From assembly GCA_000091205.1 (NCBI GenBank), contig AP006484.2: DNA of 64,000 nt; one strand, written 5' to 3'. Position 1 is the first letter of the stretch. Every line of letters starts with the position of its first letter. This DNA comes from Cyanidioschyzon merolae. Its lineage: Eukaryota. Below, one piece after another: positions 1-63,394 of this stretch. The position numbers and the translations under genes were made by a program. The notes beneath the pieces were generated by a model. The model was given only the letters and a program-made list of their open reading frames with translations. It made no database searches and was not told where the DNA came from.

Positions 1-842
1 TCCTTTCAACGACGAAACGAACGTCGAAGACTGCCTCGGTCCGTTGAGAGCGACTTGCTGTTCCCGCTGCTTTTCTGTATAGTTCTTAACGGAAGCGCTG
101 CTGCCAGCTCCTCGAGAACGCGCCGCAAGCGCACGTCCCGAACGACTCTCGAGACTCTTCAAGTCCGGAAGCTTTCTCCTCAATGGGTCTAGTACAGGGC
201 TTTGGCTCGGGTATTCTGTTGTAGAGCTCCGAACACCTTCTACGAGCTGCTTTGTAGACACTCGTTTGTACGAGCTCGTCCCGGGTCGAGCGAAACAAGG
301 TACGGGTGCTGCCTTTCGCAGAAGCGCCTTTTACGAGCTGTTCTCGTGACACCGTGAGGCTTGTTTCGCTGGATCCAGCTCAAGCAAAACAAGTTCAGAA
401 CGCTTGCAGCGGAATATCCCGCGGGACACCTCGATCGCTGCAGCAACTGCCTAGTCGGGTAGCTTCACATAAAACATACCAACTTGTAGGACGACAACGT
501 TCTGACCCGAACTATTCTTTCAGGCGATAGGAAGCGTGTCGAGCTCGCCAGGCGCCTGAAGTACCAAGTGCCTGTGCCGGCTTCCCGCGGGACCAGGAAG
601 ACACCGAGCGCACGCGCCAGTATATGCGCTACTCGTTTAGACATGATCCCCAGAAAAACAGCACCTGACGCGACACATATTCGCCAAGCGTCGGACTCGC
701 AGTGAAAACGCTTCGACCGACCAGCAGCAGACTCCCTCAGCTGACCGCATCACACGTCAGGACTTGTAGACTGCTATAACGCATGGTATGTGGTCGAGCA
801 TCTCGCCGCTATGCCTGCCATATGAAGATACAGGCGCATCGC

Positions 843-3173
843 TCAAGGTTTCCAGCCCCAGACTTCGAGCACGACACATTCAAACTCGCCAAGGGATACC
901 TCATTCGCGGGCGCATCGAGACAGAGCGGCGGGTTATCGAAGGTTTCGCTGTACCCCGAAGTTCCGGATAGCAACGCGTCATCCAGTGAGAGCGCGAAGT
1001 GGGCGCCCCCGCCAACGGCGATGAAACGCGGTCCCGAATACTGGAAGAATGTATTCTTGCCGGTCCAGGGATAAGGTTCAACGTGTCCCTGAGCATCTGC
1101 TCGGAAGACGAAACACTCACCGGTCCCGTAGAAGGTGCTCGCGTTCGATCGCCAAGTCTCTGTGACGAAGGCCCCGAAAACATGACCAGCACGATCCCGC
1201 ACAGCAACAACGCTCTGCGAAGCGTGCTGGGTACGGTGGTAAAACGTATAGAGCGATGCCCCATGAATCGCGGTGGAGTACACGAGACACCAGACCGCGT
1301 CTCGATAGCGATGTGGCAGTGCGTTTCGTAGGGACTCGAAATGATCAGGCGAGAGCACTTGCGAGTGAAAATTCGCCGCTAATGTCACTGTGGCTGTTGC
1401 TGGAGCAGTGACAGCGGTAGTGGCGCCTGCTGGAGGCAGCGCGACCAATGACGACGACGACGTCGACGACACCACTCTTGACGTATGCATTCGAGACGAT
1501 CCCTCAGGTGCTTCTGAGCATGTATGCGCGGGATACGCAGCGACGTCGCAAGTCGATGACGTCCTCGTTCTAGCCGGACTCTCAGATGCCTCCCCGGATA
1601 CATGCGCACGGTCCATAGCCGAGTCGTGCGCTTCAGGCGCTCCGCGTGTCGCAAGAGGCGCAGACTTGTCTGCTGCGGTGCTTCTTGTCTCTAAAGCCGG
1701 CGAAGATGCCGCAGCACGCATTGCGCTCGAGTGGACGCGAGCATGGGCACTTCCATCATCGGCCGATTCCCGCTCTAATGATGGAACCGGGAAAGCGTCT
1801 GTCGTCGCTTTAGCAGCTGGCTGGCTCGGAGGCCATGCATCGACTCCACTCGCTGGGCTCCATTGGCTACTGATGTTGTCGTCGTCGTCGTCGGGAGCCG
1901 AAGCCTGCGACCATACCCACCGGCTTAGCATCCGACCAAAACTGCCCCAGAGATCATTTCCCGTTCCAGCGTCTTTCGTCGACTGCTCCGATCGGGCAAT
2001 GTCGATCGGATTTGTTGAGACATTCGCAGCCGAGGCAGCGCTGGGAGCTTGCCTCTCTTCCAGCTCATCGACGGTGCGCTGCTGGACAGTGATCTGCTCC
2101 AATAAAGCCGATATGGTCGTATTGCGGCAGAGAAACGCAAGTCTCTCCGTATCTGCTCCAGAATCCGTTTGAGCATCTGCTCGAGGTGTGCACGGCGAGC
2201 AGTCCACCTCCAGCCATGCCCATTCCGCGGGATTGATGAGCTGCTGGAAATCCTCAGCACAAGCCGGACGAATCTTCCAGCGTCTTCGAGTTGGTCCCAA
2301 TGGAAGTGTGATGTTATTCGCCTTATTGTCGTCGTCGTCGTCGGTATGAAGCGCGTCGGCTCCCAGCTGCCGCTCCAGGATGCACTGCAACACTGCAAAA
2401 GCCGACGGATTCGTGGGCGGAACAAGGTTGACAGAGCCTTCAAACGTAGCGTTGCCTACCCGAATCCAACCCACAAGGCTTTGTTGATGGCTGTTCGATG
2501 AATGATGATCCGCATGACTCGTGGCAGAACGTGCTGAGGTCGCTGGAGACGCGCTCCGGCCACTACTCTGTGGTGTGGCCGGCTGGATCGTGCACCAAGT
2601 TTCTGGACCTGCTTCTCTCACCGCGTCCTGCAAATAACGCTGGAGCAATTTTTGGAGCCGAACAATGTCAGCACGCAGGCTCTCTACTTCTCTTTCCACT
2701 AGTCTCCGACTGAAACGCATCTGGTCTACCTGGGTTCGCATCGCGGCGAGCTCCGCTTCCCAGCGATGTCTTTCCCAGGAACGACGTTGGTCGTCCATAC
2801 ATCCAGCAGCTTCTAAAGCTGCATCTGTGCGGATAACAGGTGATTGTTCGGGTGTCCGCTGCTGTTGTTTCTGCCCCACTGATACCCGCGGTTGCGTACC
2901 CGGTGGTGACAGTTGCTGGTCGGCGGAAGCGTCGGGTTGCTGCGGGTCAGGTCGAGTCCCTTTTCCTGCCTCCGAACGCGACGAGGCTTGCGGCTCCTTT
3001 CGATTATCGAGCACAAGAGCGCTCTTGCCCGAGTTCGTGTAGTTCAGGGGCGCTTGCTGCACGAAGCGGAACGGCTGTTCCAGGGAGACGCGTTCGCGCT
3101 CGTTCACAGTACCAGCAGCAGCAGCAGTTGCTGCTGCTGCTGCTGACTGCCTGGTACGTTCGTCCACATCCAT
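843..3173 (-). CDS. TLDc-domain protein (Oxr1/NCOA7-like), 776 aa. N-terminal region is low complexity and coiled coil with poly-A, poly-D and poly-Q runs. TLDc domain is C-terminal.
   Basis: Long ORF on the minus strand. The C-terminal 160 aa match the TLDc consensus (WCLVYSTAIHGASLYTFY...VFGAFVTETW...FYGTGECFVFR...WTGKNTFF...AVGGGAHFALSLDDAL...SETFDNPPL...LEVWGW). Confidence 0.8.
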   Translation of the reverse strand: MDVDERTRQSAAAAATAAAAGTVNERERVSLEQPFRFVQQAPLNYTNSGKSALVLDNRKEPQASSRSEAGKGTRPDPQQPDASADQQLSPPGTQPRVSVGQKQQQRTPEQSPVIRTDAALEAAGCMDDQRRSWERHRWEAELAAMRTQVDQMRFSRRLVEREVESLRADIVRLQKLLQRYLQDAVREAGPETWCTIQPATPQSSGRSASPATSARSATSHADHHSSNSHQQSLVGWIRVGNATFEGSVNLVPPTNPSAFAVLQCILERQLGADALHTDDDDDNKANNITLPLGPTRRRWKIRPACAEDFQQLINPAEWAWLEVDCSPCTPRADAQTDSGADTERLAFLCRNTTISALLEQITVQQRTVDELEERQAPSAASAANVSTNPIDIARSEQSTKDAGTGNDLWGSFGRMLSRWVWSQASAPDDDDDNISSQWSPASGVDAWPPSQPAAKATTDAFPVPSLERESADDGSAHARVHSSAMRAAASSPALETRSTAADKSAPLATRGAPEAHDSAMDRAHVSGEASESPARTRTSSTCDVAAYPAHTCSEAPEGSSRMHTSRVVSSTSSSSLVALPPAGATTAVTAPATATVTLAANFHSQVLSPDHFESLRNALPHRYRDAVWCLVYSTAIHGASLYTFYHRTQHASQSVVAVRDRAGHVFGAFVTETWRSNASTFYGTGECFVFRADAQGHVEPYPWTGKNTFFQYSGPRFIAVGGGAHFALSLDDALLSGTSGYSETFDNPPLCLDAPANEVSLGEFECVVLEVWGWKP
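3113..3145. repeat. 33-nt perfect palindrome (CAG)5-TTG-(CTG)5 at the 5' coding end of the TLDc gene
   Basis: Read directly in the sequence: cagcagcagcagcag ttg ctgctgctgctgctg. It can form a hairpin and encodes the Ala/Thr-rich N-terminus in the gene frame. Confidence 0.9.
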
Positions 3174-3872
3174 GAGTGGGCAGCAGAGCGCGCTTCAGCG
3201 TAACCTGCGTGGACGCTCACGGCATCCAGCTCTGTCGAGCGCTGTTTGCTCGCTGGTCACGAAACGCTCGAGCGCTTGCGCCTTACGGCGACTCGCGGGT
3301 CTCGAGCTTCGGTAGTCACTGTGATAGCGTTCAGACAAAAACCTGATGAAAAACTTGCACACCGATCTGGTCGAAGCGGAGAAGCTCAGCGGCGTTATGA
3401 GGGAGAGGAATCCCGTCTGTAAAGTCAGGTACGATGCGGATGGTGAGCCATTCTGGTCTTTCAAGTAAATTTTATTGCACCATTGCTGCAGTGTATAGCC
3501 GGAGATCGAAACCACGATGCAACGTACCGTATCGAAAACGAACAGACACGAACTTTTACATGGTAACGAGATAACAATTTCGTTCGACCTGTGCGGTAAA
3601 CGTTAGAGGGGAAAGCTTTCCGAATCGTCGAAAGTTTGCGTTCAGAGCGAAAGGTCCCTAGAACTGTACGAGTCTGCAGGGCTAGTGCTTCATGCTCTCA
3701 CAAGTGGCTGGTGCTTTGGCGAGACGTAAGCAAATCGTCCGCAACAAAGGTTATTCTGGGACTAGGAGGGGGTAGGCTGTGTCGGGGCGTCGCCCTGGTC
3801 GCAGTGGACTCCTAGTACATCGCTTCGGGCTACAGGCAGTAGGTCTGTCTCCGCAGCTTCCTGGCTCCCGGC

Positions 3873-4085
3873 ATGCTTATGTACTTCGACCCTCTGTCCG
3901 GTGAGCCACGCCACGCGGAGATGCCCGCAGTGGTATGGCAACGCCGTACAGTGTCCTTGATGCATCCGCTCCAGCGGCATAACTGCTATTACGAATGCAG
4001 CAGGGGAGGTACTCGGTGCAAGATAGAACGTATGGAACAACCAGTACATCCGAAAGGAAGTATACACAATGGGAATTGCAGCTAG
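3873..4085 (+). CDS. Small conserved ORF, family 1 copy A (70 aa), hypothetical
   Basis: The 70-aa ORF has a same-length paralogue at 20695-20907. Residues are conserved along the full length (M..DP..AVWQ..MH..QR..CS.GGTR..I.R..P..PKGS..N..C). Several codon differences are synonymous (gac/gat, cct/ccc, ggg/gga). Confidence 0.3.
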   Translation: MLMYFDPLSGEPRHAEMPAVVWQRRTVSLMHPLQRHNCYYECSRGGTRCKIERMEQPVHPKGSIHNGNCS

Positions 4086-4138
4086 GGTGCAGCATGATAG
4101 ACACTTTCCCCAAAGCCAATACCCATGCATTCCGCATC

Positions 4139-4179
4139 CTGGAATCCAAGGTCAACGTAAACGTTCTGTCATCGGCAAA
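4139..4179 (+). promoter_or_regulatory. Conserved ~40-nt motif copy A (ctggaatccaaggtcaacgtaaacgttctgtcatcggcaaa). Candidate cis-element upstream of the bromodomain gene.
   Basis: The same motif recurs at 20957-20996 and 63355-63394, each 190-480 bp upstream of a plus-strand gene and in the same orientation. Confidence 0.3.
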
Positions 4180-4200
4180 TAATCCGTTGCGGTCTTATCC

Positions 4201-4627
4201 ATCCTGTCTATGATATCCAATATTATACGTTTTCAGAATCTTCCTCGATGCAGCGTGTCCATAGAGCTCACTGCCATCCTGTCTATAATGTCCAATATTA
4301 ATCGTTTTCAGAACCTTCCTCGTTGCAGCGTGTCGATGGCGCTCACTGCCATCCTGTCTATAATGTCCAATATTATCCCTATTCAGAACCTTCCTGAATG
4401 CAGCGTGTCGATGGCGCTCACTGCCACCCTGTCTATAATATCCAATATTATCCCTATTCAGAATCTTCCTCGATGCAGCGTGTCGATGGCGCTCACTGCC
4501 ATCCTGTCTATAATATCCAATATTATCCCTATTCAGAATCTTCCTCGATGCAGCGTGTCGATGGCGCTCACTGCCATCCTGTCTATAATATCCAATATTA
4601 TCCCTATTCAGAACCTTCCTCGATGCA
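4201..4627. repeat. 75-bp tandem minisatellite, about 5.7 copies
   Basis: The unit atcctgtctataatatccaatattatccctattcagaatcttcctcgatgcagcgtgtcgatggcgctcactgcc repeats head to tail. The unit length is a multiple of 3, so ORFs stay open on both strands. Each unit contains two ATGs. Confidence 0.95.
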
Positions 4628-6632
4628 AGTCCCCGCGCCATTCCCGCATACTCCGCTGCGCCCTCTGGTTCGTATTTGCGACGTGCAGCGCACCAGTTCC
4701 ACCTGGATGCGTCGTACCCGCCAGCATGCACCCTTTGCTGGTAACAGTATATCCTATAGCGCTCGGGAAGATGACGGTTTCCCCGATAGAGAGGATCCCG
4801 GCGATCTCGCCCTCCCGGACGACAGCTGGTCGGCGACGGGCGACGACACCGAGTCCAGTGCAGCGACGACTCGGCGCCAGCGGGTAACGCGGCGGCGAGG
4901 TCGGGCTTCGTCTCCGAGCACCGACACCAGTGAGCCTGCGCGTCAACGACAGCGACGCTCGCGCACCTCTCACATCAGTGTCGGTGACGAGTCCGGACAA
5001 CGACCGACTATCCGGACGCGCTCGGCATCGTCGCTAGAAGCAGGCGGCGTGCCCCGAGCCACTTCATCTGATCAGGATACGTTTCGGAATACCGTGGCTA
5101 TTCTCATTGAGCAGGTACGGCAGCATGATCGTTATGGGTTCTTCTGTGCCCCGGTTGATCCGGAGGAGGCGCCTGACTATCACGAAGTGATCCCAGAGCC
5201 GATGGATCTCGGTACCATGCAGAGGAAGCTCGAGACAGGCAAATATCGGCGCCTCGACGAAGTTGAGCGTGACCTAGATCTTATCTGGCGCAACTGTTTC
5301 ACATATAATCCAACAAATAGCATTTACTACCGCGAGGCGGCACGAATGCAAAAGTGGGCGCTGAAACGGGTCCAGTGGGCGCGTCAGCGACTCTGCGGCA
5401 TTACGGGAGCGCCCAGTCCCGCCGAAGGACAAAGCTTCAGTACGTCAACGCATTCTCGTGATGAAAAGGTACAGCACACCCATTCGAGGATGGTGAAAGG
5501 CGTATCGCGTGGGTCCGCGGTGGCTCTGGACTCGGCACCGCGGATGACGGTACGACTCCAGACAGAACGTCATCGGGACCCGGCTGCAGTGCCCGGCACG
5601 AGCTCGGAGCTGCCTACCGCAACCGAAACTGAAGGCAAACCGAAACCCGTTGCCGAAATGGATGTTGTTCTGGATGAGGCGCTGGACCCAGAGGCATCGT
5701 ATGCGGTGGCAGCGCAGGACCCTGGCGCCTTTATCGAGCGCGTATGGCGAGCGTTCGTGACTCGCCAAGAGCGCTTGCGTATCGAGAAGGAGCACGAACG
5801 ACTGTATCACTATCCGCGTCACAGTTCGGAGGGCGAGCGTGCTGCTGCTGACCTAGCCAGGACGATGCTTTCGCAATGGCTCGGGAAAACGATCAAACGG
5901 GCTCCGAACGATGCGGAGAAATATTTGCTGGAAATTCTTTCCGCTGCAGAGCTACCCGCCGAAACTCTCCAGCGAATGGCAACAGCATTCACGAGTCAGC
6001 AGCAGAACGGAGCAACTGCAGCAGCATCTGTTGAGGAAAACCCGTCTTTGAAGTCGAGGCCTACAGTCGGACGTGGTACACATGCAGCCGCTTCGCATGA
6101 CGATGCCCAGACCCGAGGAGCGAGTGCTTCAGCAACGGACGACTCGCCCGAGACATCAAAGGACGCGTTCATCGCCTCGCGTTGGTATGCCTTGCGACGC
6201 TCTCTTGCAGCGCTCCGGTTGGCCCAGATACAGAACGCACCCCTTTCCGAGCAACTCCGCCGCTATGATACGGTGCTCGCGCTCCTAGCACGCCAGTTGG
6301 AGACCATCCCGCCACGATTGCTCTTAGCCGAGGGTGGAGTCGAGAGCATCCGCGCATTTGCGCAGCGCCTTGTCCAATATGAAGATTCTCGTGCCGAAGA
6401 CGCAACGCCAAATGCTGAGAGTTCTGGACAAACACCGATGGCGAGTGATCCAGATGCGACGCAGCCGCAAAAGGGTGCTACAGATGGCCATAGCGTCGGT
6501 CATCACCCGGCAGCGACACCAGGAGCCGCTCATGCAAACGATGGGGGCGCTCAGACGGATCGCCCGCATGACATCAAAGTCGACGGCGTTTTTTCTGCGG
6601 GGAACGCAACTATGCTCAGACCGCAGGTTTAG
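4398..6632 (+). CDS. Bromodomain-containing protein (744-aa ORF). True start uncertain: ORF-initial ATG at 4398 lies inside repeat unit 3; the 4623 ATG (partial unit 6) or a later ATG is also possible.
   Basis: Bromodomain signature FFCAPVDPEEAPDYHEVIPEPMDLGTMQRKLETGKYRRLDEVERDLDLIWRNCFTYNPTNSIYYREAARM. The first ~230 nt of the ORF are tandem repeat, encoding MQRVDGAHCHPVYNIQYYPYSESSS three times. Confidence 0.75.
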   Translation: MQRVDGAHCHPVYNIQYYPYSESSSMQRVDGAHCHPVYNIQYYPYSESSSMQRVDGAHCHPVYNIQYYPYSEPSSMQVPAPFPHTPLRPLVRICDVQRTSSTWMRRTRQHAPFAGNSISYSAREDDGFPDREDPGDLALPDDSWSATGDDTESSAATTRRQRVTRRRGRASSPSTDTSEPARQRQRRSRTSHISVGDESGQRPTIRTRSASSLEAGGVPRATSSDQDTFRNTVAILIEQVRQHDRYGFFCAPVDPEEAPDYHEVIPEPMDLGTMQRKLETGKYRRLDEVERDLDLIWRNCFTYNPTNSIYYREAARMQKWALKRVQWARQRLCGITGAPSPAEGQSFSTSTHSRDEKVQHTHSRMVKGVSRGSAVALDSAPRMTVRLQTERHRDPAAVPGTSSELPTATETEGKPKPVAEMDVVLDEALDPEASYAVAAQDPGAFIERVWRAFVTRQERLRIEKEHERLYHYPRHSSEGERAAADLARTMLSQWLGKTIKRAPNDAEKYLLEILSAAELPAETLQRMATAFTSQQQNGATAAASVEENPSLKSRPTVGRGTHAAASHDDAQTRGASASATDDSPETSKDAFIASRWYALRRSLAALRLAQIQNAPLSEQLRRYDTVLALLARQLETIPPRLLLAEGGVESIRAFAQRLVQYEDSRAEDATPNAESSGQTPMASDPDATQPQKGATDGHSVGHHPAATPGAAHANDGGAQTDRPHDIKVDGVFSAGNATMLRPQV

Positions 6633-9600
6633 GGAAGCGCGGAAAAATGTCGCCAATTCGTGCATTCGCTTTCCTGAGGCGTAACGTTTGTCGCCCAACG
6701 CGCTTCGTGATCGGCAGTGATGGCTCCTCACTTCACCAGATACGTCTCTGAAAGCCGCATGACTCACGATAAACGCCTTGTTTGCTTCCGAAGAGTTGCG
6801 AGCGGCACTTGTGTAGCACCGAGGCGGCGTCCATGTGCGAATGCTTTCAGCGACACGCGCCGGCTTGCTACTGTGTCCGAAGCTCATTGCGCAGCTGCGG
6901 TGGTTTCGTGAACGTCACCACCTAGACGCGCGTGGCAAGTGCGCTGGAGGTGTCGTGGAGGTCCCTTTGGTTATCGCCGTTGTGTTTGCTGGCGAAGCAG
7001 ATGGATGAACCGAGGATTGCCCGCTGTCTGGTGGGTATGCTGGGGCTCCACCGCGCTTCGGCATCGGAACGCTGATGGAGAACATTGCACTGAAACCGCT
7101 TCCAAGAAAGACACGGCGTCATCGGACTCCAACATGGAAAGGCACCGACACGCTGGGAAGACTAACCGGATTGAAACCGCTTCCACGAGAGATGCGGCCC
7201 CGTCCATGACTGTCTTTGGGGAACTCTCCATATGGGCAAGTCCTCACTGAACAGGACACCTACGCAAATATACTCTGATGACGAGCTCGCCATATGTCAT
7301 GCGTGGTCGGATCCAGTAACACCATTGCCCTCTGGATGCCGGTTCAACATCCTTGCGCCCCAATAGAAGACCAGATATGGACAGGGAATAGACTCCGGGT
7401 GTACATCCACGGCAGAAAACTCGGATGTGCACGCTAAAGCTGGGGTCTCTCGTATGCGTTATCATCAACACCAGCCGTTGCAGGCATTCTTCGTTGGATA
7501 CTTGCTCATCCTCCACTGTCCTCGGGTTTCAATACGCCGGTCGCGACTGCTCCCGGAGGTCCGTTGTCAGCGGTCGAAACGTGTTCATTGCTGGGAGTGA
7601 GTCCCGATCTCTCTGCTTCCGCTTGTTATTGTGGAGTTTCATGTACACGTAAAAGTCGCGATCTGCGTTTCGCTTCCCGTTGTTGTCTTCTTCCTGTACA
7701 GCCTCGTCGTGCACATCGCAACGGTGAAACTTGACTGTGGTCAGGTGCTTCCAAGAGTCGGCTACACACCATGCTCCGAAGGCGGAGCTGTATCGCGTGA
7801 ACGCTTGGTTCATCGCTCGACTCGGGCGCTCGAAGGGAACAAGAGGCCCCGCTCAATGTCGTAATCCGGTTTCACGCCAGATACCATACCCGACGATCCG
7901 GGGCTTTTTCTTCCAGGTATTATTGTCGCCGAGTAGTCTGTCTGCTGCACAAGTAGATGCAGGCGGTTCCATTCGGCAGAGGATTTGTGGTGCGCGATAA
8001 TGCCCACCATGAAACATGTACCGGAAGCAGCATCCAGTTTGGAGAAGAATCCGAAAATCTTGGATCCGTCTACGCTTGCTTCGTGGAAACCGGTGACGCG
8101 CTCTCCACTGGAAGCGAATGTTGCGGTGGCTAAATTACGAGTCCAAGACTTTTTTCCATGCAAACAGAAGAGACTCTGCACTCAACCAGCATATCCGGTT
8201 AGAGGGATCGTGTCGCTGCTGCATTCAGTTTCGCGGATGGCCATCGGAAAGCCTAGGATTTGTATTTCGAACGGATTCCTTTCATGGATGTCGAAAATAA
8301 GGGGTTTTTCGACATGAGCTTGCACGCAAGCAGTCAAGTAACGACGTCTACCGTATTGATTGCCGCCTATCCAGCGGCGTTGATCGCCACACACATACAT
8401 ACACACACACGAGTTGCCTTGAAAGAGAAAGATCGAAACGTTAAACACAGCGTAATTCGAGCATGCTACGTGTAACGAAAACAGAATAATGGAGGCTTGA
8501 ACATATGACCTGGAAGAGAATGTCAGTTGTTGAACGAACCCGTATTCAAGTTCGTCGCAGATCATCTTTATTCCGATCACGGAACGTATCCCAGTGGTAA
8601 AAGTTCGACACTGCATTTTGTGAAACACGTCCAGGAATCTCCATAAAAGTACCACTATATTTGCATCCGGCAGCATTGAGTACTGCACGTCGACTGTCCA
8701 CGCTGCACATTTATGAACAATTTCGGAACGAAAAACGAATACGGCGGGATGAGGTCGAGCAGTTCGGCGTTCCTTGTGCATCTGACACTTGTTTTATGAT
8801 TGCGTGACAAGACGCGAGACTTTGCACCACCTGGTCCTGGTTTATGATGTAGTATTCGTCTTACAAGCAACGTGAGCAACCTCCTATCCTGGAGACCACA
8901 CCATCACGCTATTGAATATTCGAACATGCACTGGAAGGTATACTCTTCAACGTCTTCATTGTTTGAAGCTCAGTACTAGGCGAGTAAAGTCTCTGGCTGT
9001 GGAGCGCAAGACACAGAGTTCCGGTGTCAGTGAATCGCTGGCCATCGCCTTGCTCTCGGTGCTGGCCTCAGGAGTACACGCGTACGCTCAGCGATACTGT
9101 CAAATATCAAACGCTGATCACGGAATGCAATGATGGACTGCTCTGGCTACCATGGATCATTATCATGATCATTGGGTCAATGGTTCCTGAAAAAACCGCA
9201 CAATAGATATCGCTGAACTTGCATGCGATCGAGTCTCCTATGAATTCCTTGAATAGACCGAATACACACGAAATACATTTCTCTATCCCGCGAAACGAGC
9301 ACCCATGCGACGATTCCAAGGACTTGTTCGGTAAACGAAAGCACACACACACACACATACACACGGAATGCCTTTTATGTCGTGCTGAACTGGCCTGTAA
9401 TCGGGCTCGAAGGGAACAAGCTCCCCGATGAGGTTATCGTCTAGGCGACCTCGACTCTCGTGCAGCCGGGTTCGCCCATGAAACCAGTGGATAAAACCCC
9501 CGTCGACGCACGGAACTATCAACGAGATGACAGCACCGGCTTTATCATGAAGACACCGTCTCATGGCATATGCTCGCCAGGGACTGCGCGTTCACTCCGC

Positions 9601-9674
9601 AATCATCATTGCAGTCATGTGTGGCGTCTGTTATCATGCACAGAGTCACGAGCAGTCTCCAAGTGGTATATCCA

Positions 9675-12446
9675 TCACGACATCGACGACGAAGCGTTCG
9701 GTCTGCCCGGTGCATTCAAGGGATCCCCGCTCGCGCCGCCTGCGCCTTGCGAGTTCTTCTGTACGCGTGAGGTGTGACGCCACAAATTCGGAGGCCGCTG
9801 CCGCTTATATTTGACCCAGAAGAGGCCACAGGCGTTGCAGAGCCGCTGCTCCTTGTTCTCTCCCTGACGCCACCCCGGTGTCTCTGTCGTACCGCAGTTG
9901 GCACAGCTCAGGGGCATCTCGGGTGTCGCGCTTTTAGCCCAGGTTGCACTGGATGACGGGCGCATGCCCTTCAGCGCAGAGCTCACCGCAACTTTCAAGT
10001 TGCCTGCACTCGCGGACGTTCTTGGTATCGCTGTTCGTCCTGTGGATGCCGGGGCAGCAACCCGGCCTAAACCGTCAAGCGGGCGTTGCATCGCGGCCGT
10101 CAACGGGTGCAGTGGTCTGCTGTGTACCAGAGCTTGGGCAGACGACGTCGATGTGGTCGTTATCGCCCCCGCTGGCGCTACTTTGCCAGGCATTGCCCGG
10201 GCGAGGGTCTCCTCGTAGGACCCGTCCATAGCCGCAGCAACAAGCCGTCTGGGTAACGCTGCGGCACCGGCCGTGGACGCCTGTTCCGTCACCTGAATCA
10301 TCGACTCTAAATAGGGGATACGCTTCCCGCGCGTATTCGTGCGTTCCCATAGATAGTCTCGAAGTGCGCGCAGCTCTGCAGCAGCCACTCCGTAGGGCAA
10401 GTCTTCGCGCAACGAGTCCAAAGGCACCGCTTCGACCTGTTCAGCAAGCTCCGGATCCAAGACAGTATCCAGTAACCAGTCTAGGTCGAGACCGTCGTGT
10501 TGCAGTTGCTGTACTTTGGCACGGAACGCTCCATAACATCGCTCAAATTGTGCTAAGCGAGCTTCCTGCTCATCTTCAAGCTTTCTCTCCCAGGCAAGCA
10601 CATCATTTTTCCACTGTTGAAGTAGTCGCTCGTGCTCCTTCTCCGGTGATAGCAGCTCATCCACGATTCGATGCGCCATGAGGCCAGCATCCGTCACATA
10701 GCGACGCAACGAGTTTGCGTAAGCATCCAAGGCTAAAAAGGTGCGTCCCTGCAGAGGTCGACAGGGATTCGCCCTGTACAGACTCGCTGCTCCGACCGAA
10801 TCTCCGTGCAGATGCTCCTCATGAGGGCATTGTGAACGCGACGATTCCTTGGTTGCCTGATCTGTTGGGCGCACCGTGAACGGCGCTGTCGTTATCGACG
10901 TAAGCGGACGCTCTCGAAGCGACCATCCGGGCCGTTTCCGCGAGATCTGACTCAGCAGGTGCCGAAACGAAACAGCCGAACGAGGCGCTGGTCCAGCCAC
11001 CAGACCAGTATTCGTATCCTTCAACGCAGCAGAGCGCGAATAGCGTTGCCGCAGCCACTCTTTGGCCATCACCTCTTGGAGATGCAGATACGAGGAGGAG
11101 ATCCGACTGAGGAGAGACGGCCACCATCGATGCTGCTGTTGCACGAGTTCGAGCCAGAGCGGCTGGCGAGCGCCACCGCTCCCTGAACTAGATTCATTTT
11201 TGGCATAACGAGGCCCGCCGGCACCCGCTTCCGTCCCTTGAACATCATTCACCGCAGACGCTTCGCTCCGCGTCAGGTTGGTTTGGTTCCCGCCATCGCT
11301 TTGAGAGGCAATGTTTCGCGAGGCTACGGTAACTGATCCCTGCTCGAGAAGTGAGATGCGAATCGCTAGCATCGACGGCTGACCAGTCGTAGAATGCTCA
11401 CGGTCCGCAGGCACGAGTGCGGTTGAGGCGGCAGTTCGACGAGGCTGCTCCGCTGACGACTCCCCCGGACTCGAGTCCTCGCTAGGAAGACAGCTCGCTC
11501 GAAAGCGCACCGTCGATGGCCACGTGCTCGTATCGGAACGTTCAGGGACTACCGAAGCACGTTGGGTATACGAGCTGACTGCAGCGTCGCCAGTTAACTG
11601 CCGCTCATTGCTCCCGACTGGAGCCTGTTGTGACTCATTCAAGGATGAAGCATCACTTTTGGCATGTGCTCGAGGGCGACTCTGCCGTGGATGCGAACGC
11701 AGAAAGCGCTCGACGGCTTCTCGCAAGGTCGGCTCGTTCCGCAGGCGAAGAAGCCGTTCTCGGGCATTTTTCCAGGCTTTCCGTGCTTCCTGTTTACAAG
11801 CCTTGCCAGCTTGATAAAAAATGGAGTCTGGTGGGTTAAACTGGAAACAGTTACGCCAGACCAAGTCGCAGTCATGCAGCACTTGGCTGAAGCTCGTATA
11901 CGCCGCGCTCTCGATCCGCTGTCTAATCGTTCCCAGGTCCATGGGCTCTTTGATGATATCTAGATAGGCGGGAACGGCTACCGGGTCGACGGGCTCCGCA
12001 AATATTCGATGTATGTCACGCCTTTGGATGCCATCGATCGCTTTCAACAGAATGGCTTTAATGGAAGGCCAAGCGTTTCCGAGTTCTCGCTCGGAAATCG
12101 TCACGACAGCACTGCGGGGACGTTTCCGCTGTCGAGTTCGCTCGACGGTGCCGCTGTTGATCCTCTTGGACCTGGACTCGCCAGGCGGTTCGTAGGATGT
12201 GTTTGTCTCTGTCAAGTTCGATGCAGATAATCCTCCAAATGAAACATTCGGTGTCGCTTGAGGCCCGTGTGCCATCGATGCATCTTGGTTGCCAGCTACC
12301 GACAGTGTACGGTTTTCGCTCCCCAGCTCGGTAGCACTGGGCACAATTGTTTGTGTGGCACCAGTTGCAGCTGTACTTGTCGTTGCGTCGACTTTGGTAG
12401 TCGAGTGCGTTGCGCTTCCAGAGATCTCCATCAAAACCCACGACAC
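9675..12446 (-). CDS. Bromodomain plus GATA-type zinc-finger protein (923 aa). Paralogue of the 4398-6632 bromodomain gene.
   Basis: Bromodomain: IFAEPVDPVAVPAYLDIIKEPMDLGTIRQRIESAAYTSFSQVLHDCDLVWRNCFQFNPPDSIFYQAGKACK. C-terminal GATA finger: CANCGTTETPGWRQGENKEQRLCNACGLFWVKYKRQRP. Confidence 0.8.
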   Translation of the reverse strand: MSWVLMEISGSATHSTTKVDATTSTAATGATQTIVPSATELGSENRTLSVAGNQDASMAHGPQATPNVSFGGLSASNLTETNTSYEPPGESRSKRINSGTVERTRQRKRPRSAVVTISERELGNAWPSIKAILLKAIDGIQRRDIHRIFAEPVDPVAVPAYLDIIKEPMDLGTIRQRIESAAYTSFSQVLHDCDLVWRNCFQFNPPDSIFYQAGKACKQEARKAWKNARERLLRLRNEPTLREAVERFLRSHPRQSRPRAHAKSDASSLNESQQAPVGSNERQLTGDAAVSSYTQRASVVPERSDTSTWPSTVRFRASCLPSEDSSPGESSAEQPRRTAASTALVPADREHSTTGQPSMLAIRISLLEQGSVTVASRNIASQSDGGNQTNLTRSEASAVNDVQGTEAGAGGPRYAKNESSSGSGGARQPLWLELVQQQHRWWPSLLSRISSSYLHLQEVMAKEWLRQRYSRSAALKDTNTGLVAGPAPRSAVSFRHLLSQISRKRPGWSLRERPLTSITTAPFTVRPTDQATKESSRSQCPHEEHLHGDSVGAASLYRANPCRPLQGRTFLALDAYANSLRRYVTDAGLMAHRIVDELLSPEKEHERLLQQWKNDVLAWERKLEDEQEARLAQFERCYGAFRAKVQQLQHDGLDLDWLLDTVLDPELAEQVEAVPLDSLREDLPYGVAAAELRALRDYLWERTNTRGKRIPYLESMIQVTEQASTAGAAALPRRLVAAAMDGSYEETLARAMPGKVAPAGAITTTSTSSAQALVHSRPLHPLTAAMQRPLDGLGRVAAPASTGRTAIPRTSASAGNLKVAVSSALKGMRPSSSATWAKSATPEMPLSCANCGTTETPGWRQGENKEQRLCNACGLFWVKYKRQRPPNLWRHTSRVQKNSQGAGGASGDPLNAPGRPNASSSMS

Positions 12447-12937
12447 TCAGGATAGTACAGTCTTGTGTGGCTTGCTTCGAGCGCTCTCGCGCCCACTGTT
12501 CAGCGTTCGGGCTGGAGAGGCGGCGCGGCTCAGGTGTGATGCCCCGAGGTCGCCACGCTGCCTCTCCCTGCAGGAGAGTAACTCCGTTCGAAGGGTTTCG
12601 AGCCTTCAATTGCCCTGCAAATCAAAAGCAAAGTCCTGCCCCGCGCCAGAGACGCTGCAGTGAAACGTCTGCGCCGCGTCCTGGAAGCTCACCGGCGGGA
12701 GACACCGAGCGCACGCGCGTTGGCGCCTAGTCCAACGATGAACCCTAATCTTGTTCGACGCTGGCGAAGAACTCTCCAACACTTTAGCGCTCCAGCAAGC
12801 GAACTTGCCGCCGTTTGCCTCTGAAAGAAACGTCCTAGTAGTGAGCTCGTGGAGCACGATTGCTATGAAAGTCGACGTTGGCCAGCACGACTGATACGGA
12901 TCCAGCCTCGCGTTCGGGTCAGCCAAGTAACCCGGAT

Positions 12938-13101
12938 GCGATAAACTGTATACATAGGGATGAAATGGGACAGAATTCTCCTCTTCGTCACCTGAACGCC
13001 AACTTGATTGCTAAACGATGCGATAAACTGTATACATAGGGATGAAATGGGACAGAACTCTCCTCTTCTTCACCTGAACGCCAACTTGATTGCTAAACGA
13101 T
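12938..13101. repeat. 82-bp direct tandem duplication (2 copies, 2 mismatches) in the divergent promoter between the GATA-bromodomain gene and the WD40 gene
   Basis: gcgataaactgtatacatagggatgaaatgggacagaattctcctcttcgtcacctgaacgccaacttgattgctaaacgat is repeated immediately. Confidence 0.95.
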
Positions 13102-13792
13102 ATTGGCCAATCTTGTTACCCGAAAACCTTTTCTTATTTCGTTAGCGTGCCATCCGAGTTGTCTTTGGCGTGCGTAACAACCGGTGGACACAATTTGCTG
13201 TGGTGCGCTAATAACTGCTCGGAAACCTGGTCCAGTGCACTTGTTTTGTGCGGAACGCGTCGGGGTACAGCGCTACCTAACGGACCCGTGTTCGCTGGTG
13301 GGCGTGTGTGTGTGAAGCGGCCAGGTTTCCAGAAACGAGCGTTCGGAACTCTTCACGATATCGAGGCGTTTTTTCGAGGCATTCGAGTGGTGGCGCAACC
13401 TCGTTCAATACCGAGAAAGGAAGCACGCTGTGTGTCCTGCGAACGCGCTTCCAGCAACTTGCGTCGTTCGAGTGCTCCGTCCGCTCTGCATCTAAACGAC
13501 TGCACACGCTTTAGCTCCCGCTTGAGGAGGTATTTGGACACTTCGCACTAGTCAGCAATTGCGCTGCTGGCACGCAACCGAGCCGAAGTAGCCGACTACT
13601 GCAACTCGCGGAAGAACCGGGTCAAGTGTGCAGGGCTCGCTCGCGAGTCTCCGAGACGCGTCTGAGCTCACAAAGGTGAGCGCCTCAAGGCACTGCCTTG
13701 AAAACCGGTGCCCATCTTTGCCATGGCGGGGTGCTGTCATTGCACCCGCCCAGCAACCTCGTCGCTGAAGCACGACACAGGCAGCACACAGC

Positions 13793-16923: not shown

Positions 16924-18438
16924 ATGATAGGCACAGGCTACGTGGGGTTGGTGTCAGGTGCGTGCTTCGCGGACGCCGCGCACTGCTGTGTCGTCTGCGT
17001 GGACTCGAACGCTCAGAAGATCGACGCGCTCAAGCGGGGTGAAATGCCGATTTTCGAGCCAGGCCTCGCCGACCTGGTTCGAAGGAACGTTCAAGAAGGA
17101 CGTCTGAGCTTCTCGACTGACCTCGCTGCAGCCGTTCGCGACGCGCAGATCGTGTTCATCGCTGTTGGAACGCCATCTCGTCGAGGTGACGGTCACGCCG
17201 ACCTCAGTTACGTATTCCGTGCTGCAGAGGCGATTGGGAAAAGCCTCCGATCGCCAGGTTTTACCTTGATTGTGAACAAGTCGACGGTGCCGGTGGGCAC
17301 TGCACGACGCGTACGCGAACTCGTTCAGCGAAACTGCGCCCCTGGCGCGAGCTTTGAGGTTGTCAGCAACCCAGAATTCCTACGTCAGGGTACAGCGGTT
17401 CAGGATTTCATGTACCCGGAACGTGTGGTCATTGGCATGTGGGAAAACCGGTTTCAACGGCAGCATGAATGCACTGCGTTTAGGTCAGCGCCGCTCCATC
17501 TTCATGAGCGTCGTTTCGTGGCGGATACAGAGCCCGGGTTCGATACACGCAAAAACGCGCAGACGCTCATGACACAGCTGTATACGCCCATTGCGCGAAT
17601 CAGTGGAGCACCCGTTCTTTTCACGAATGTGGAGGAAGCCGAATTGGTCAAGTACGCTGCAAACGCTTTCCTGGCTATGAAACTCGAGTTCGCGAATGAA
17701 ATTGCGGACTTGTGTGAGGTTGCCGGTGCCGACATCAGCGTGGTCACGCATGCCATTGGCCTCGATGCTCGCATCGGACCAGACTATCTGCAGGCTGGGC
17801 CGGGCTTCGGTGGCTCATGTTTGCCAAAGGACACACGAGCCTTAGCGCGGATCGCACAGGAGTTGTGGCGTCCGTGTCGCCTCGTGGAGACAGTCATCGA
17901 GGGCAACGAGGCGCGAAAACGGCGGATTGCCCAGAGAATTGCCCTCGCAGTCGTTGGTAACAGCGCTGACATGAATCACGTCTACGGGCGATGTATTGGG
18001 GTGCTCGGTCTGACATTCAAGGCACACACGGACGATACTCGTGACTCACCTGCAGTGTTTATTGTGCGAGAGCTAGTGGAACTTGGGGCCAAGGTGCGAG
18101 CATACGACCCCCAAGCGAATCATCGAGAAGTGCATCAAATACTGGGGGAAGATGTCGAACTCGTCTGCAGTGCACAGGAAGCAGCCCGAGGCGCCGATGT
18201 GCTCGCGGTCCTCACAGAGTGGCCCGAAATTCGTCAAGCTTGCGACGCGCTCGGGCCAGAAGGACTAGGGAGCCTGATGCGTCACCGTGTTATCTTCGAC
18301 GCACGAAACCTCTGGAGACCAGAGGACTGGCTCCATAGCGGCTTTACCTACCATTCCATTGGGCGTCCCACTATTTATGCCGACACCGCTGCCTCGTTCG
18401 CAGACGCCTCCGTACATACGACTCAACGGTTGCGCTGA
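16924..18438 (+). CDS. UDP-glucose 6-dehydrogenase, bacterial type (about 504 aa from ATG 16924; the listed ORF continues upstream in frame to 16585)
   Basis: MIGTGYVGLVSGACFADAAH...GEMPIFEPGL...VFIAVGTPSRRGDGHADLSYV...NKSTVPVGT...SNPEFLRQGTAVQDF...KYAANAFLAMKLEFANE...GPGFGGSCLPKDTRAL...GLTFKAHTDDTRDSPA. This is closest to proteobacterial UGDH. There is a roughly 60-aa insertion after the PERVVIG motif. Confidence 0.85.
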   Translation: MIGTGYVGLVSGACFADAAHCCVVCVDSNAQKIDALKRGEMPIFEPGLADLVRRNVQEGRLSFSTDLAAAVRDAQIVFIAVGTPSRRGDGHADLSYVFRAAEAIGKSLRSPGFTLIVNKSTVPVGTARRVRELVQRNCAPGASFEVVSNPEFLRQGTAVQDFMYPERVVIGMWENRFQRQHECTAFRSAPLHLHERRFVADTEPGFDTRKNAQTLMTQLYTPIARISGAPVLFTNVEEAELVKYAANAFLAMKLEFANEIADLCEVAGADISVVTHAIGLDARIGPDYLQAGPGFGGSCLPKDTRALARIAQELWRPCRLVETVIEGNEARKRRIAQRIALAVVGNSADMNHVYGRCIGVLGLTFKAHTDDTRDSPAVFIVRELVELGAKVRAYDPQANHREVHQILGEDVELVCSAQEAARGADVLAVLTEWPEIRQACDALGPEGLGSLMRHRVIFDARNLWRPEDWLHSGFTYHSIGRPTIYADTAASFADASVHTTQRLR

Positions 18439-18743
18439 GTCGCCTGTCGCGCTCGTTGCTTCTGCAACGCCGTCCGTCGCAGTCGCTTCTCCGTGTTGCT
18501 TTCGAAGAACTGTCGACGCTTCACTTCCTGCAGGATGCCGGCTTTCACCACCTCCTTCTTAAACCTTCTCAGCGCACTATCGACGGGTTCTCCCGGGTTC
18601 ACGAGCACCCGAACCCGCATCTCAATTGACGTGTCACTCGCCGGTCGCTGACATGTCGGAGCACAGGTGCCGACCCCACGCCCCGCGACAAACGAATGAT
18701 AGGGCACAGCAGCTATCTTGGAAGCAGTTAACGTAACGAACAT
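18423..18743 (-). CDS. Ribosomal protein bS21, organellar (probably mitochondrial), with an N-terminal presequence
   Basis: MRVRVLVNPGEPVDSALRRFKKEVVKAGILQEVKRRQFFESNTEKRLRRTALQKQRARQ matches the bacterial S21 family. It is preceded by about 40 aa of presequence. It overlaps the UGDH stop codon by 16 nt in convergent orientation. Confidence 0.6.
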   Translation of the reverse strand: MFVTLTASKIAAVPYHSFVAGRGVGTCAPTCQRPASDTSIEMRVRVLVNPGEPVDSALRRFKKEVVKAGILQEVKRRQFFESNTEKRLRRTALQKQRARQATQRNR

Positions 18744-18917
18744 GGGTTTAATCTTTGAAAACTCGTCGCTTGTAATGCGGTGCCAACGACGAACGCTTCA
18801 GAAGTCGAAAGCAGTCGCCGTCACGGGTACAGTAGTGGCGGCGAACGCGCCTTGGACAAATTGGCTCCAAATGACGTGCAGATGCTTCCTAGGCTTTCTC
18901 GCCCGGCCACCTCCAAC

Positions 18918-20140
18918 TTATTCCAACTGTTTCTCATATAGTTCCACTTTTAATGATTGTCTAACAAAGTTCTCTCTTGTCCATTCTGAAGGTCTTCTCT
19001 CCAGCACCGCGCTTGTCTTTACATTGATAAGGGCGTTCAAGTTTCGATTTGCAAACTCCATACGGTTGTAGCCGTTGGGAGTTGTCCTCATCAGTGCAAG
19101 CAAACCTCGAACTTTCGCACTCCTTTCCATTTGCTCTACCGTCAGCGGTCCGTACTTTGCTAGTTCCTCAGGGCTCCGTTGGCACTTTTCCATCTCCTCC
19201 CTCTGAGGTGTACACCCCAGTTCATGGTGTGTATACGATGTTCGGAACTCGTCTACAGGTATTGTGGCAAAACGCCTCGGGCACTGCTTGTACGTTCTCG
19301 TCGTTGGAGCTGGAGTAGTCCCTTTTTGTGTCTTCCATCGGCCTGCTCCGTACGCTACAACGAGCCTTTGACCCTCGTCCTCCTTCGGGGCGCTCAACTG
19401 ATTGAAAAAGTTGGCGAACGCCCGCTGCTTACCGCAATACAGATTTATTCGCAAACGAGCCCACCGGGGCTTGGTATACTCCTCCCACAGCGCATCCCAA
19501 TGGGCAACACGAACTTCCATGAATTTCCGAAAAGCTGTAAAGTCCGCCCCGCGGCTCGTCACCTCGCTCAAAGCTTCCAGGTGATCCTTCATTCCTGCAT
19601 TCCATGTCTCGATTTTTTCCTCGCATTCATTATAACGGATTCGCGGTAATGTCTCTATCTTTAGAACTGAAAAAGACGCATGTCGTTCTGACGTAAGTTG
19701 CCGTCAGTACCATCTTCCCCACATTTGGGTGCTGCAATGGCTATGATATTTGTGTTCCCGGGGTCTGCGTCAACGATAAACTCGTTATCCTCTACCTACT
19801 GCGTCGCAGGATCCTCCTCCTTCTCATCTTCATGCTTCGCCGAAGGCAAAGCCGCGGGCGGAACATGGCGATCCGCCTTCAACCGCCGATAGCGTACACA
19901 CGTTGCCACTCCATCGGTTTCGATCATCCCAGTGAATGCCTTTTGTTTGCTCGCTTTCAGAAGTTTGAAACTGAAGATGTTCTTCCAGTACGTCTCCCGG
20001 TTTTCGCCGGTGAACTCCTCCCTGTTCACATCGAACTCCGGACAGATAACCCTCATGATGCCATAAAGGACTCTGGAATCGATAGTCATAAAATGTGACT
20101 TGATATTGCACATTGGAAACATGTTGCAGCGCTTACCCAT
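18918..20140 (-). pseudogene. Degenerate TnpB/Fanzor-like (RuvC-like) transposon-derived ORF in an AT-richer island. It has an in-frame TAG and a frameshift, or alternatively one roughly 112-nt intron.
   Basis: RuvC-I-like [18 protein letters not shown] immediately after the TAG at 19796. Degenerate zinc-finger position IPVDEFRTSYTHHELGCT, with Cys replaced. RuvC-III-like NRNLNALINV, with D replaced by R. Candidate intron 19797..19686 with donor GTAGGT, branch TACTGAC and acceptor CAG restores the frame between the two ORF blocks. Confidence 0.3.
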
Positions 20141-20694
20141 TACGAAAGCCTTCCGTCTCTCCCACTCTTCATTTTTTCCTCACTCAGCTTCATCTTCGCA
20201 TTGCGTTCGAGTTCTCGGTCCAGATACTCGAAATACCGCAGGATGAGATAATAGTATCTTTCCGTATCTTTTTCCAAGTATGATATCTTTTCTGCTGGAT
20301 TCGCCAGCCCCAAGTCTGCGCGATGCTCTTGTCTAACTGCACGGATCTCAGAAGCTTCATTATTTCTCCTGTGTCATGTCTTCTTGTCGACAAATTCGAT
20401 CTTTCCTTCGTTCTTACTATCGTTCGTGATGCCATTGATGATGGCCGATCTCTTTCCTCTGGAGAGAGACCTCGGTACCGTGCAAACACGGTGCGTATCA
20501 TGATATGTTTCAGGTTCACAATCACACTGAGCTTCAGGCTCATGAGGTACTGCATCGCCCCGTCACAGTTGATTCTGGGACTCGGAGCGGGTAGCCTGCG
20601 TCTTGGCGTCGAGCTGGTTCATTTGGAATCCCAGGACCTCGTTTCGTGCAGCCACATCAAGTATGTCTGTCTGCACAACTTGTAGGCTCTCAGA

Positions 20695-20907
20695 ATGATC
20701 ATCACCCCCGATCCCGTATTGAATGCATCAAGCCTCCAGCCGACGTCTGCAGCGGTATGGCAAAGCTATTTTGCCGCTGTGATGCATTGGCATCAGCGGT
20801 GTAGGCGCTACGGCGGGTGCAGCAACGGAGGTACTCGGCGCATGATACAACGTACAAAACCACCAATAGATCCGAAAGGAAGTGAAACTAATGCAACTTG
20901 CAGGTAG
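20695..20907 (+). CDS. Small conserved ORF, family 1 copy B (70 aa), hypothetical
   Basis: Paralogue of 3873-4085, with the same length and conserved residues. Confidence 0.3.
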   Translation: MIITPDPVLNASSLQPTSAAVWQSYFAAVMHWHQRCRRYGGCSNGGTRRMIQRTKPPIDPKGSETNATCR

Positions 20908-20956
20908 AGTGAAGAATAATGAGCGTTTTCATTGATTTCAATATCCATCCTGCAAA

Positions 20957-20996
20957 CTGGAATCCCAGGTCAACGCAACGATATTGTCATCGAAAG
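20957..20996 (+). promoter_or_regulatory. Conserved ~40-nt motif copy B, 170 bp upstream of the DJ-1/PfpI gene
   Basis: ctggaatcccaggtcaacgcaacgatattgtcatcgaaaga aligns with copies A and C. Confidence 0.3.
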
Positions 20997-56267: not shown

Positions 56268-56535
56268 GCATGTATGAACGTTGCATATACGTGAAAGAGA
56301 CAAATTGTTGGACGGGTGTGCCTGTGACCGCGAGGCAGGCCTTTGCGAGCAAAAAGCGAATAAAGGATAGCGTCGAATAGGCTGCGGAAGCAACGCGGCC
56401 GTATCGCGAACATGCTTCACGGTATCGCAGTCATGGAATGCACAGCATACAATCTACGCAGCGGCGTACCACGGATCAAAGATCGAATTCTCACTCAACT
56501 TGTCCCACGCATGCGGTTCTTATTCACCAATGCCA

Positions 56536-61772: not shown

Positions 61773-63354
61773 CGGGACTCGTGAGATTATCCGCCAAAAG
61801 GGACTGCTGCCGCCGATGCGATGCGCTCTCGAGCCATGCACGTCAGCGAAGCGCGCGTTCCCTAGGCCCCACATTGCATCCGGGGTTTCTTTCTCTAAAC
61901 GCTTTGTCAAGGACATAAACCTCTCCGTTTATCTGTCTGGGCTCGACATACGAAGGAGATTTCGTCACCATTTGAAGCAAGAGACTGAAGCGCTATCGAG
62001 GTCGCCTCGGCGCATGCACTTCCAGGGCGCTCCGGCAGGGTCGGGGTCTCCGACCCGCTCAATGGTTTCACTGCCCAGGGTGTTTTCTTCTAGTAGAGAC
62101 CACGCTCAAGGTGTATTGTTTTGGATCTTTATTTTACTGATTGCCACTTTGGAGCGCTTGCGGTGCCTCGGTCGAGATCTTCGCCGACGCTGGCGAACCG
62201 CGCCGCTCAAGCACACGCAACTGCAATCGTTTCCGTCGCACGTCGCACTCCTCGGTAACGAAGCAGCGCTTGCGTCGATCACGAAACACCTAATAGGACG
62301 CGGTGTTCAGAGAGTTACTGTGTTTGATCCGGGCAAAAGGGAGCAGCGAGGGCGCCTTGGCAGGGCAAGCACTCCAGCGAGGCTTGTTCTGGGCCCTGCA
62401 GACGCCACACGTCGCCGTATTGTGGCCATGACGGTAGACCAGCGCGAGCGCATCAGCGATAACAGAGCCTTCTACGATGAACCAGACTTGCTACTCACCT
62501 TGGATGGGCATCTTCACGGGTATCCGGCCACGGCGCTGCGCGTTACGCACCTCCACCGGCTTGCGAATCCGAGTTTATGGGCGGTAGATGAGGCGCTTCG
62601 TCTCTACTTGACAACTGAACGTCGCCAAGGTCGATGAGAGGGCACCTGACTCGATCGCCAGCGCATCGTGCTGCCCGCAAGGTACCTGGCTATGCACTGC
62701 AAAGTATGAAACAACGTTTACTCAGCTTGGGGCTTCAGTGTCGTGTCACGAAGATTTTCACGATGAGCTTGCACGGATCACGAAAAAAGGGCGAACAATG
62801 CGCAATCACTGCGCCGAATTCTGGAATCCCTCGACCATGAACAAGGGCGACCTCCAGGCCCACCTATCAATGCAAAAGCTACAGGTCACCTGTCGTGCTC
62901 TGAATTCATATACAAGCGAGAAGCATTCTACGTGCGAGGGCATCAGCGCCCTAAGTATTCTTTAGCTATTGCTTGAATACAGAGGTCGCCGGGGAGCGCG
63001 CTAGCGAGGTCGCTGGACATCGCCATGCGGTGCAAGCCTCCTTCTACAATACGAATTCGATGCAGCTTCGCACACTCTGATGGAAGTGCACATGCTGCCG
63101 GAGATCGCACCTTCAACCTTACCTCTTCTGCGAACGCAACCATGTTTTATAAATCCGGGAGAAGCGTCCCTGAAAACAACGGAGGCTTGATCAATGCATC
63201 GACGCAGCGAACGTCGCACGGAGACAGGACGGTATGACGCCAAGGCCTCCAAAGACGTGAGCTACGGGGAACGCACGACGCTGTTCGGGACAGCGCTCGT
63301 TGTGCTGGTCTGTGCTCCGACATGCTGCGCACACAGAATACCCATCCCGCATTC

Positions 63355-63394
63355 TAGATTCCACGTACAACGTAAACGTGTTGTCATCGGAAAC
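63355..63394 (+). promoter_or_regulatory. Conserved ~40-nt motif copy C, about 320 bp upstream of the Mrt4 gene
   Basis: tagattccacgtacaacgtaaacgtgttgtcatcggaaaca aligns with copies A and B through the core CAACGYAAMCGW..TGTCATCGR. Confidence 0.3.

Follow-up and report, generated by a model that had tools for sequence, protein, structure and literature searches.

A recurrent intergenic motif in Cyanidioschyzon merolae is very probably the left end of the catalogued CMe-1A/TE-N2_CMe transposable-element family

The window analysed here, a 64,000-nt stretch of Cyanidioschyzon merolae contig AP006484.2, carries genes on both strands as long uninterrupted ORFs. A short motif recurs at positions 4139-4179 (copy A), 20957-20996 (copy B) and 63355-63394 (copy C). 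An earlier note, made from the sequence alone, had described this motif as a conserved stretch of about 40 nt, intergenic at each site and oriented toward the next plus-strand gene. We confirmed both the intergenic position and the orientation of all three copies. The downstream genes had been named as a bromodomain gene, a DJ-1/PfpI gene and Mrt4. Pfam agrees with the first two, and a Ribosomal_L10 match is consistent with the third. The window also contains an Mre11 ORF, which is 54% identical to Mre11 of Cyanidiococcus yangmingshanensis and 99% identical to a protein in JGI/Logan assemblies.

We examined the extent of the motif with a repeat finder, which returned a direct-repeat family of three members, all on the plus strand (4128-4178, 20946-20996 and 63343-63393), with 73-80% identity over 51 nt. 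In blastn comparisons, copies A and C aligned over 51 nt (80.4%, E 2e-7) and copies B and C over 56 nt (71%, E 2e-4). The IUPAC core written in the earlier note is matched by copy A without mismatches and by copy B with two, and the number of matches expected in dinucleotide-preserving shuffles is 0.00. Copy C (GATTCCACGTACAACG...) has more than three mismatches to this core, which as written is slightly over-specified. The repeat finder, blastn and the shuffle expectation together bear out the presence of the motif at three loci. The three copies are real and chance is ruled out. Their conservation is at the nucleotide level and non-coding, as had been claimed. The repeat itself therefore stands, but its length of about 40 nt does not, since copies A and B are similar across approximately 440 nt (67%, E 4e-55, blastn). 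Copy C shares just the terminal 55 nt or so with the other copies.

CMe-1A is a Fanzor1 (eukaryotic TnpB-like) element of C. merolae (Bao & Jurka 2013, Mobile DNA 4:12, PMC3627910; Repbase), with about 150 genomic copies, each roughly 80% identical to a consensus of about 3 kb (PMC3627910). The non-autonomous element TE-N2_CMe is 635 bp long, has about 70 copies and is 95% identical over its full length to the 5' 635 bp of CMe-1A (PMC3627910). According to the same paper, CMe-1A has no terminal inverted repeats (TIRs), and its target-site duplications (TSDs) could not be determined. A 2024 paper on dispersed repeats in C. merolae (PMC11050394) mentions neither this family nor Fanzor. We used the CMe-1A consensus of 3169 bp from Additional file 2 of Bao & Jurka 2013 (PMC3627910). 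This consensus starts with CGATGACAAAACGTTTACATTGACCATGGATCCCAG, which is the reverse complement of the core of the motif, and the three intervals of the earlier note correspond to consensus positions 1-36 plus 4-5 flanking bases.

All three copies in the window lie on the minus strand relative to the consensus. The motif of copy A (4139..4179) is the reverse complement of consensus 1-36 plus 5 nt beyond its start, with consensus position 1 at window position 4174. The whole of copy A spans 3530..4174 and corresponds to consensus 1-644 (79.8% identity, 652 aligned columns, E 4e-153, blastn); its end probably extends to 4185 (GGATTATTTGC in element orientation). Copy B occupies 18797-20992 and matches consensus 1-423 and 1399-3164 by blastn. 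It consists of a 5' module at 20566..20992 (consensus 1-423, 76%) and a body at 18797..20563 (consensus 1399-3164, 85%), consensus 424-1398 being deleted. The copy B motif at 20957-20996 equals consensus 1-36 plus 4 nt of flank. Copy C is a fragment at 63337..63389 that aligns to consensus 1-53 only (81%, blastn) and overlaps the motif at 63355-63394. The earlier note had also proposed a longer dispersed unit, of about 300 bp, with the motif at its end. Such a unit exists, but its size ranges from 645 bp in the solo form to 3.2 kb in the Fanzor-bearing form.

The window contains further repeats. An inverted repeat of 1471 nt (56524-57994 and 60314-61784, 99% complementary) encloses a segment of 2.3 kb, which has the opposite orientation in metagenome contig L024. 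This segment is either invertible or an assembly ambiguity. An 82-bp tandem duplication, with two copies and 97% matches, lies at 12935-13101.

Additional copies of the element were present in metagenome assemblies. Hot-spring contigs carrying a window-like Mre11 were 99.2% identical to the window over 16 kb and were taken as the same species. When a degenerate version of the motif was used to scan metagenome contigs, 51 loci were obtained, 13 of which came from this organism. The remaining 38 had unrelated sequence at the match and were discarded as chance matches. The 13 loci represent sites A, B and C in several strains and a fourth copy, D, found on L009 and on three more contigs. Among the strains sampled, copies A, B and C are all fixed: copy A was present in two metagenome strains at 99.6-99.8% identity and the copy C fragment in four metagenome contigs. 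Copy D lies on the plus strand of L009 at 10581-11074 and 11078-13159, corresponding to consensus 1-494 (80%) and 1075-3166 (86%). It holds the full unit of about 500 nt, adjoined by a stretch of 1.76 kb with 80% identity to window 18817-20563. Correspondingly, the body of copy B is 79-80% identical to this second genomic copy (L009 11408-13181). Copy E is found about 3 kb past the end of the window, on contig L055 (also L041), where it runs on the minus strand from 5291 to 5166 and matches consensus 4-128 at 75%.

Searching with the CMe-1 consensus protein yielded 43 homologous ORF clusters in JGI and other (hot-spring) metagenome assemblies, and the contigs around eight of these were added to the copy survey. 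Contig L059 carries a full-length copy (consensus 1-3169). Another full-length copy is located on L061 at 5746-8893 (minus strand), head to head with a second copy that begins at consensus 660 (8917-11426, plus strand), the two being 24 nt apart. L063 contains a solo copy (consensus 5-639). The extra copies that start at consensus 1-5 thus number five: D, E, and those in L059, L061 and L063. Fragments lacking the terminus were seen in L063 (consensus 47-256), L069 (37-246) and L058 (84-534). Copies starting near consensus 650 in L063 and L065 share an upstream module that differs from TE-N2 (L063 3321-3401 and L065 1010-1090), which suggests that 5' modules can be exchanged between subfamilies of the Fanzor element. 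Near one Fanzor copy there is also part of a reverse-transcriptase (RVT_1) ORF (L063 814-1311), and retroelement remnants are thus present in the genome as well.

All eight occurrences of the motif are the start of a CMe-1A/TE-N2 copy. The 5' terminus of the consensus (CGATGACA...) is common to these eight independent copies, which start at consensus position 1-5. Most copies also have in common about 11 further nucleotides outside the published start, namely SGATT and a pyrimidine-rich run beyond TGTCATCG. This suggests either that the published consensus is slightly truncated or that the element has a target preference. No TIR pair spans the copies and no TSDs were found around five copies, where the longest k-mers shared between flanks were 5-6 nt. 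We saw no transposase associated with the CMe-1A/TE-N2_CMe family, nor was a TIR or TSD evident.

Compared with the published elements, copies B and D align to both ends of the CMe-1A consensus at 76-86% and encode CMe-1 as pseudogenes. They likewise lack TIRs and TSDs, as the paper reports. Unlike the CMe-1A consensus, both are internally deleted (424-1398 in B and 495-1074 in D). Copy A (consensus 1-644) and the solo copy in L063 (5-639) match the described extent of TE-N2_CMe, whereas copy C is merely a 53-nt stub. Copy A appears to be of the TE-N2_CMe type, judging from the 635 bp given in the paper and from its own end at consensus position 644. We conclude, with a probability of roughly 0.94, that the motif, read on the opposite strand, forms the extreme 5' (left) end of the old, unclassified CMe-1A/TE-N2_CMe transposable-element family. 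The motif is already known: it is catalogued, decayed repeat DNA and no new gene switch or RNA.

The ORF of the CMe-1A consensus covers positions 906-3110 and encodes 734 aa. Copy B carries a frameshifted, stop-ridden Fanzor1 (CMe-1) pseudogene that retains aa 166-734 in four frame pieces (frames -3, -1, -2 and -3; tblastn, 58-80% identity), and the RD of its RuvC-III motif is altered to RN. Read against the motif strand, copy D encodes a protein that is uninterrupted for 370 residues and has RuvC-like motifs of TnpB/Fanzor type (GADPGNTN, VDEFRTS and RDFNAAIN). Judged by the Fanzor1 pattern of D ... [TS][TS] ... zinc finger ... RD (Bao & Jurka 2013), the consensus and the L009 copy contain GADPG, VDEFRTS and RDFNAA, but HHELGC...C in place of the C4 zinc finger. 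Pfam gave nothing significant on the 734-aa consensus protein (TnpB/Cas12f profile PF07282, E 0.51), and phmmer of this protein against PDB sequences gave no matches. Pfam also found nothing in the small ORFs and the Fanzor ORF pieces of the window, and the precomputed DUF8286 label of the JGI ORFs was not reproduced.

Contig L058 carries an uninterrupted Fanzor-family ORF of 752 aa (P0121; 10001-12259), which is 71% identical to the CMe-1 consensus over 92% of its length and may be an intact copy. An AF2 model of this homologue was of low confidence (pLDDT 48.8); its top seven Foldseek matches in the PDB were all Fanzor, with E-values from 6e-8 to 2e-3 and TM-scores of about 0.2. The predicted assignment to Fanzor draws on Bao & Jurka 2013, on the motif pattern and on these matches of the low-confidence P0121 model. 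A distant Fanzor-like ORF, 30% identical to CMe-1 aa 368-685, was observed in L009 at 5927-6840. An ABC transporter gene separates it from copy D, roughly 4 kb away.

Several features of the element recall the TnpB/Fanzor OMEGA systems (IS200/IS605-type; SpuFz1, GtFz and PpFz). The RuvC-like motifs GADPG, VDEFRTS and RDFNAA are present here too, the gene likewise sits within a multicopy mobile element, and the best matches of the predicted structure are Fanzor. In contrast to these systems, no canonical C4 zinc finger is visible, and the window copy is frameshifted and, going by the change of RD to RN, predicted to be catalytically dead. The motif is situated at the left (5') end of the element, whereas omega RNAs are encoded at the right one. 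At their right ends (window ~18800-18850, minus strand, and contigs L009, L058, L059, L061, L063, L065, L066 and L069), the Fanzor elements share a conserved ACTACTGTACAC flanked by GCCGCC/GGCGGC-type arms. A hairpin folds in six of 11 sequences, and RNAalifold gave no net covariation support for it. We regard this hairpin as a candidate omega-RNA or right-end feature.

We then considered where the copies lie relative to genes. In all cases with a measured distance, the 5' end of the element is divergent from the gene that it faces. It lies 224 nt from the first in-frame ATG of the bromodomain gene (copy A), 201 nt from the ATG of the DJ-1/PfpI gene (copy B) and 254 nt from that of the Ribosomal_L10-family gene named Mrt4 in the earlier note (copy C). 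The corresponding distances are 385 nt to an ABC transporter gene in L009 and 274 nt to an MFS transporter gene in L059. The other side of the element also faces gene starts, at 357 nt (TLDc), 48 nt (ribosomal S21) and 536 nt (DEAD_2 helicase). Hence all eight flanks abutting Pfam-supported genes (bromodomain, TLDc, DJ-1, S21, Ribosomal_L10-family, ABC transporter, MFS and DEAD_2 helicase) meet the gene at its 5' end, in what is a small sample.

Divergent gene pairs flank three of the five loci, namely A, B and the L059 copy, so that either orientation of the element faces a gene start there. That the motif points at the next gene would follow from where the relics are found: in the promoter-side spacers, most of them divergent, of a compact genome. 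This pattern fits insertion or survival in the promoter-side spacers of a gene-dense genome, and it shows no orientation rule. The head-facing bias of the eight Pfam-supported flanks could hide some exaptation.

Two other features were observed close to these copies. The S21 gene whose start is nearest to the right end of copy B (18429-18749, minus strand; Pfam E 6e-16) overlaps at its 3' end the end of a UDP-glucose dehydrogenase ORF. Beginning 25 nt outside copy A, a tandem array of 75-bp units (4199-4627; 5.7 units, 93% matches) overlaps the first in-frame ATGs of the bromodomain ORF. The array is absent from the CMe-1A consensus; strain L056 has three units fewer and L033 the same number as the window.

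The earlier note had taken the motif for a cis-regulatory element or a small structured RNA and had stated that the promoter reading would fail if the copies were embedded in a transposon consensus. They are, as every copy maps to positions 1-36 or 1-53 of the published one, and because of this embedding both the promoter and the small-RNA readings fail in the form in which they were put forward. A transposon end could still have been co-opted for host genes as a promoter-proximal binding site or as a sequence that positions the transcription start. Five copies with the 5' end 201-385 nt from the ATG of a divergent Pfam-supported gene would agree with such exaptation, as would copy C, which retains the terminal 53 nt alone upstream of Mrt4. 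However, the terminal 50 nt are not better conserved than the interior of the element: positions 1-50 are 77% identical to the consensus and bins 51-600 are 72-84% identical, with the interior at about 80%. The motif stood out only because the short fragment C keeps that part. Among the eight occurrences we found no case of a motif conserved above its surroundings or independent of the repeat element. Other fragments lack the terminus (L063, L069 and L058), the functions of the flanked genes are unrelated, and any orientation meets a gene start at the three divergent loci. We consider exaptation of the end very unlikely. A structured RNA, for example an omega-RNA-like guide scaffold made from the element end with the motif beside a flanking guide, is more doubtful again, at the level of a few chances in a hundred at best. 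Fanzor/TnpB systems do transcribe RNA from the transposon end (Saito et al. 2023, PMC10432273), and a sharp boundary at the motif is common to all copies. In the described Fanzor systems, however, the omega RNA maps to the right end, either at the stop codon or directly behind it (PMC10432273). The motif occupies the other end, some 900 bp upstream of the consensus Fanzor start codon. RNAalifold predicted no pairs for the motif in eight copies on both strands, and when the 5' module of A, B and D was folded in full, again on both strands, the covariation terms came out positive, that is, penalising. No Rfam match at the gathering threshold and no tRNA or tmRNA (ARAGORN) was found in the whole window.

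Two further readings concern the nature of the repeat unit. The module could be a retroposon read in reverse, with a SINE-like 5' module whose 3' end on the plus strand is the motif, copies C and E being 5'-truncated retrocopies. This would account for the same terminus at unequal lengths in C (53 nt) and E (125 nt) and for the A-rich flank after TGTCATCG in several copies (GCAAATAA, AAAGAAA, GAAACAG and AGAAAAC). Against it, no TSDs were found, and the flank is just loosely A-rich, a true poly(A) or simple-repeat tail being absent. The window, with three of the copies, holds no tRNA-like part, and the terminus is missing from some fragments. Moreover, both published termini of the 3.2-kb element survive in B, D and the L059 copy, and the internal deletions are of the kind usual in DNA elements. 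We find a retroposon origin slightly less likely than exaptation and somewhat less doubtful than a structured RNA. A kinetoplastid SIDER-like element was also considered and dropped, as genes lie on both strands and the Mre11 is cyanidiophyte. The least credible reading makes the motif the 3' UTR of a small protein gene family, a 70-aa ORF being the real gene. This 'family-1 small ORF' lies within the element on its antisense strand, at 3873..4085 in copy A (plus strand) with a twin at 20695-20907 in copy B, and the two ORFs are of equal length and in the same position. Yet about 39% of their residues are common (27/70, counted by eye) at 67% nucleotide identity, which we judged to be roughly neutral drift. 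Neither the consensus nor copies F and H preserve the frame, which is closed or different there. Several other frames of this G+C-rich DNA, on either strand, are just as open, and the 70-aa ORFs have no Pfam matches. The ORF is a chance open frame and not a gene, and a conserved antisense gene was ruled out by the loss of the frame in other copies. The idea that we hold to be improbable, though least so among the alternatives, gives the 5' module (TE-N2) a role of its own, as a site-preferring landing pad or TAM-bearing Fanzor target, or as an outward-firing promoter cassette adopted by host genes. It is raised because the extended terminus (SGATT, the pyrimidine run and CGATGACA) recurs about 200-390 nt head to head with host gene starts, because the 5' module appears exchangeable between Fanzor subfamilies (L063 and L065 carry a different one) and because the 5' module in L061 abuts the start of another Fanzor unit.

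Returning to the reading of the motif as the left end of CMe-1A/TE-N2_CMe, we propose the following explanation. The family has two forms: CMe-1A, of about 3.2 kb, with a Fanzor1 gene for a putative TnpB-like RuvC nuclease, and TE-N2_CMe, of about 635 bp, which is the 5' module alone. In the window, A is a solo 5' module, B a CMe-1A that has lost an internal part and whose Fanzor gene is dead, and C a 53-nt terminal stub. The copies would have arrived by transposition and would since have decayed neutrally, to about 20% from the consensus, with presumably no host function. The relics would face gene starts through having inserted or survived in promoter-side, mostly divergent, intergenic DNA. 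By analogy with described systems, a nuclease with a guide RNA from the 3' end would have helped the element to be retained or to spread, and the 5' module would have provided the left end together with the promoter and 5' UTR of the Fanzor gene. The basis of this explanation is the identity to the consensus, the common start point, the pseudogenisation, and a motif with no extra conservation or RNA structure.

For the annotation of C. merolae, the motif is to be masked as a CMe-1A/TE-N2_CMe repeat and not scored as a regulatory element, a non-coding RNA or a small-ORF family. There are small gains as well. The published consensus may be about 11 terminal bases short, and the relics lie almost exclusively in promoter-side intergenic DNA. 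Finally, the 5' module and the Fanzor unit can be separated, a property that may help to define the ends, the target site and the guide RNA of the C. merolae Fanzor.
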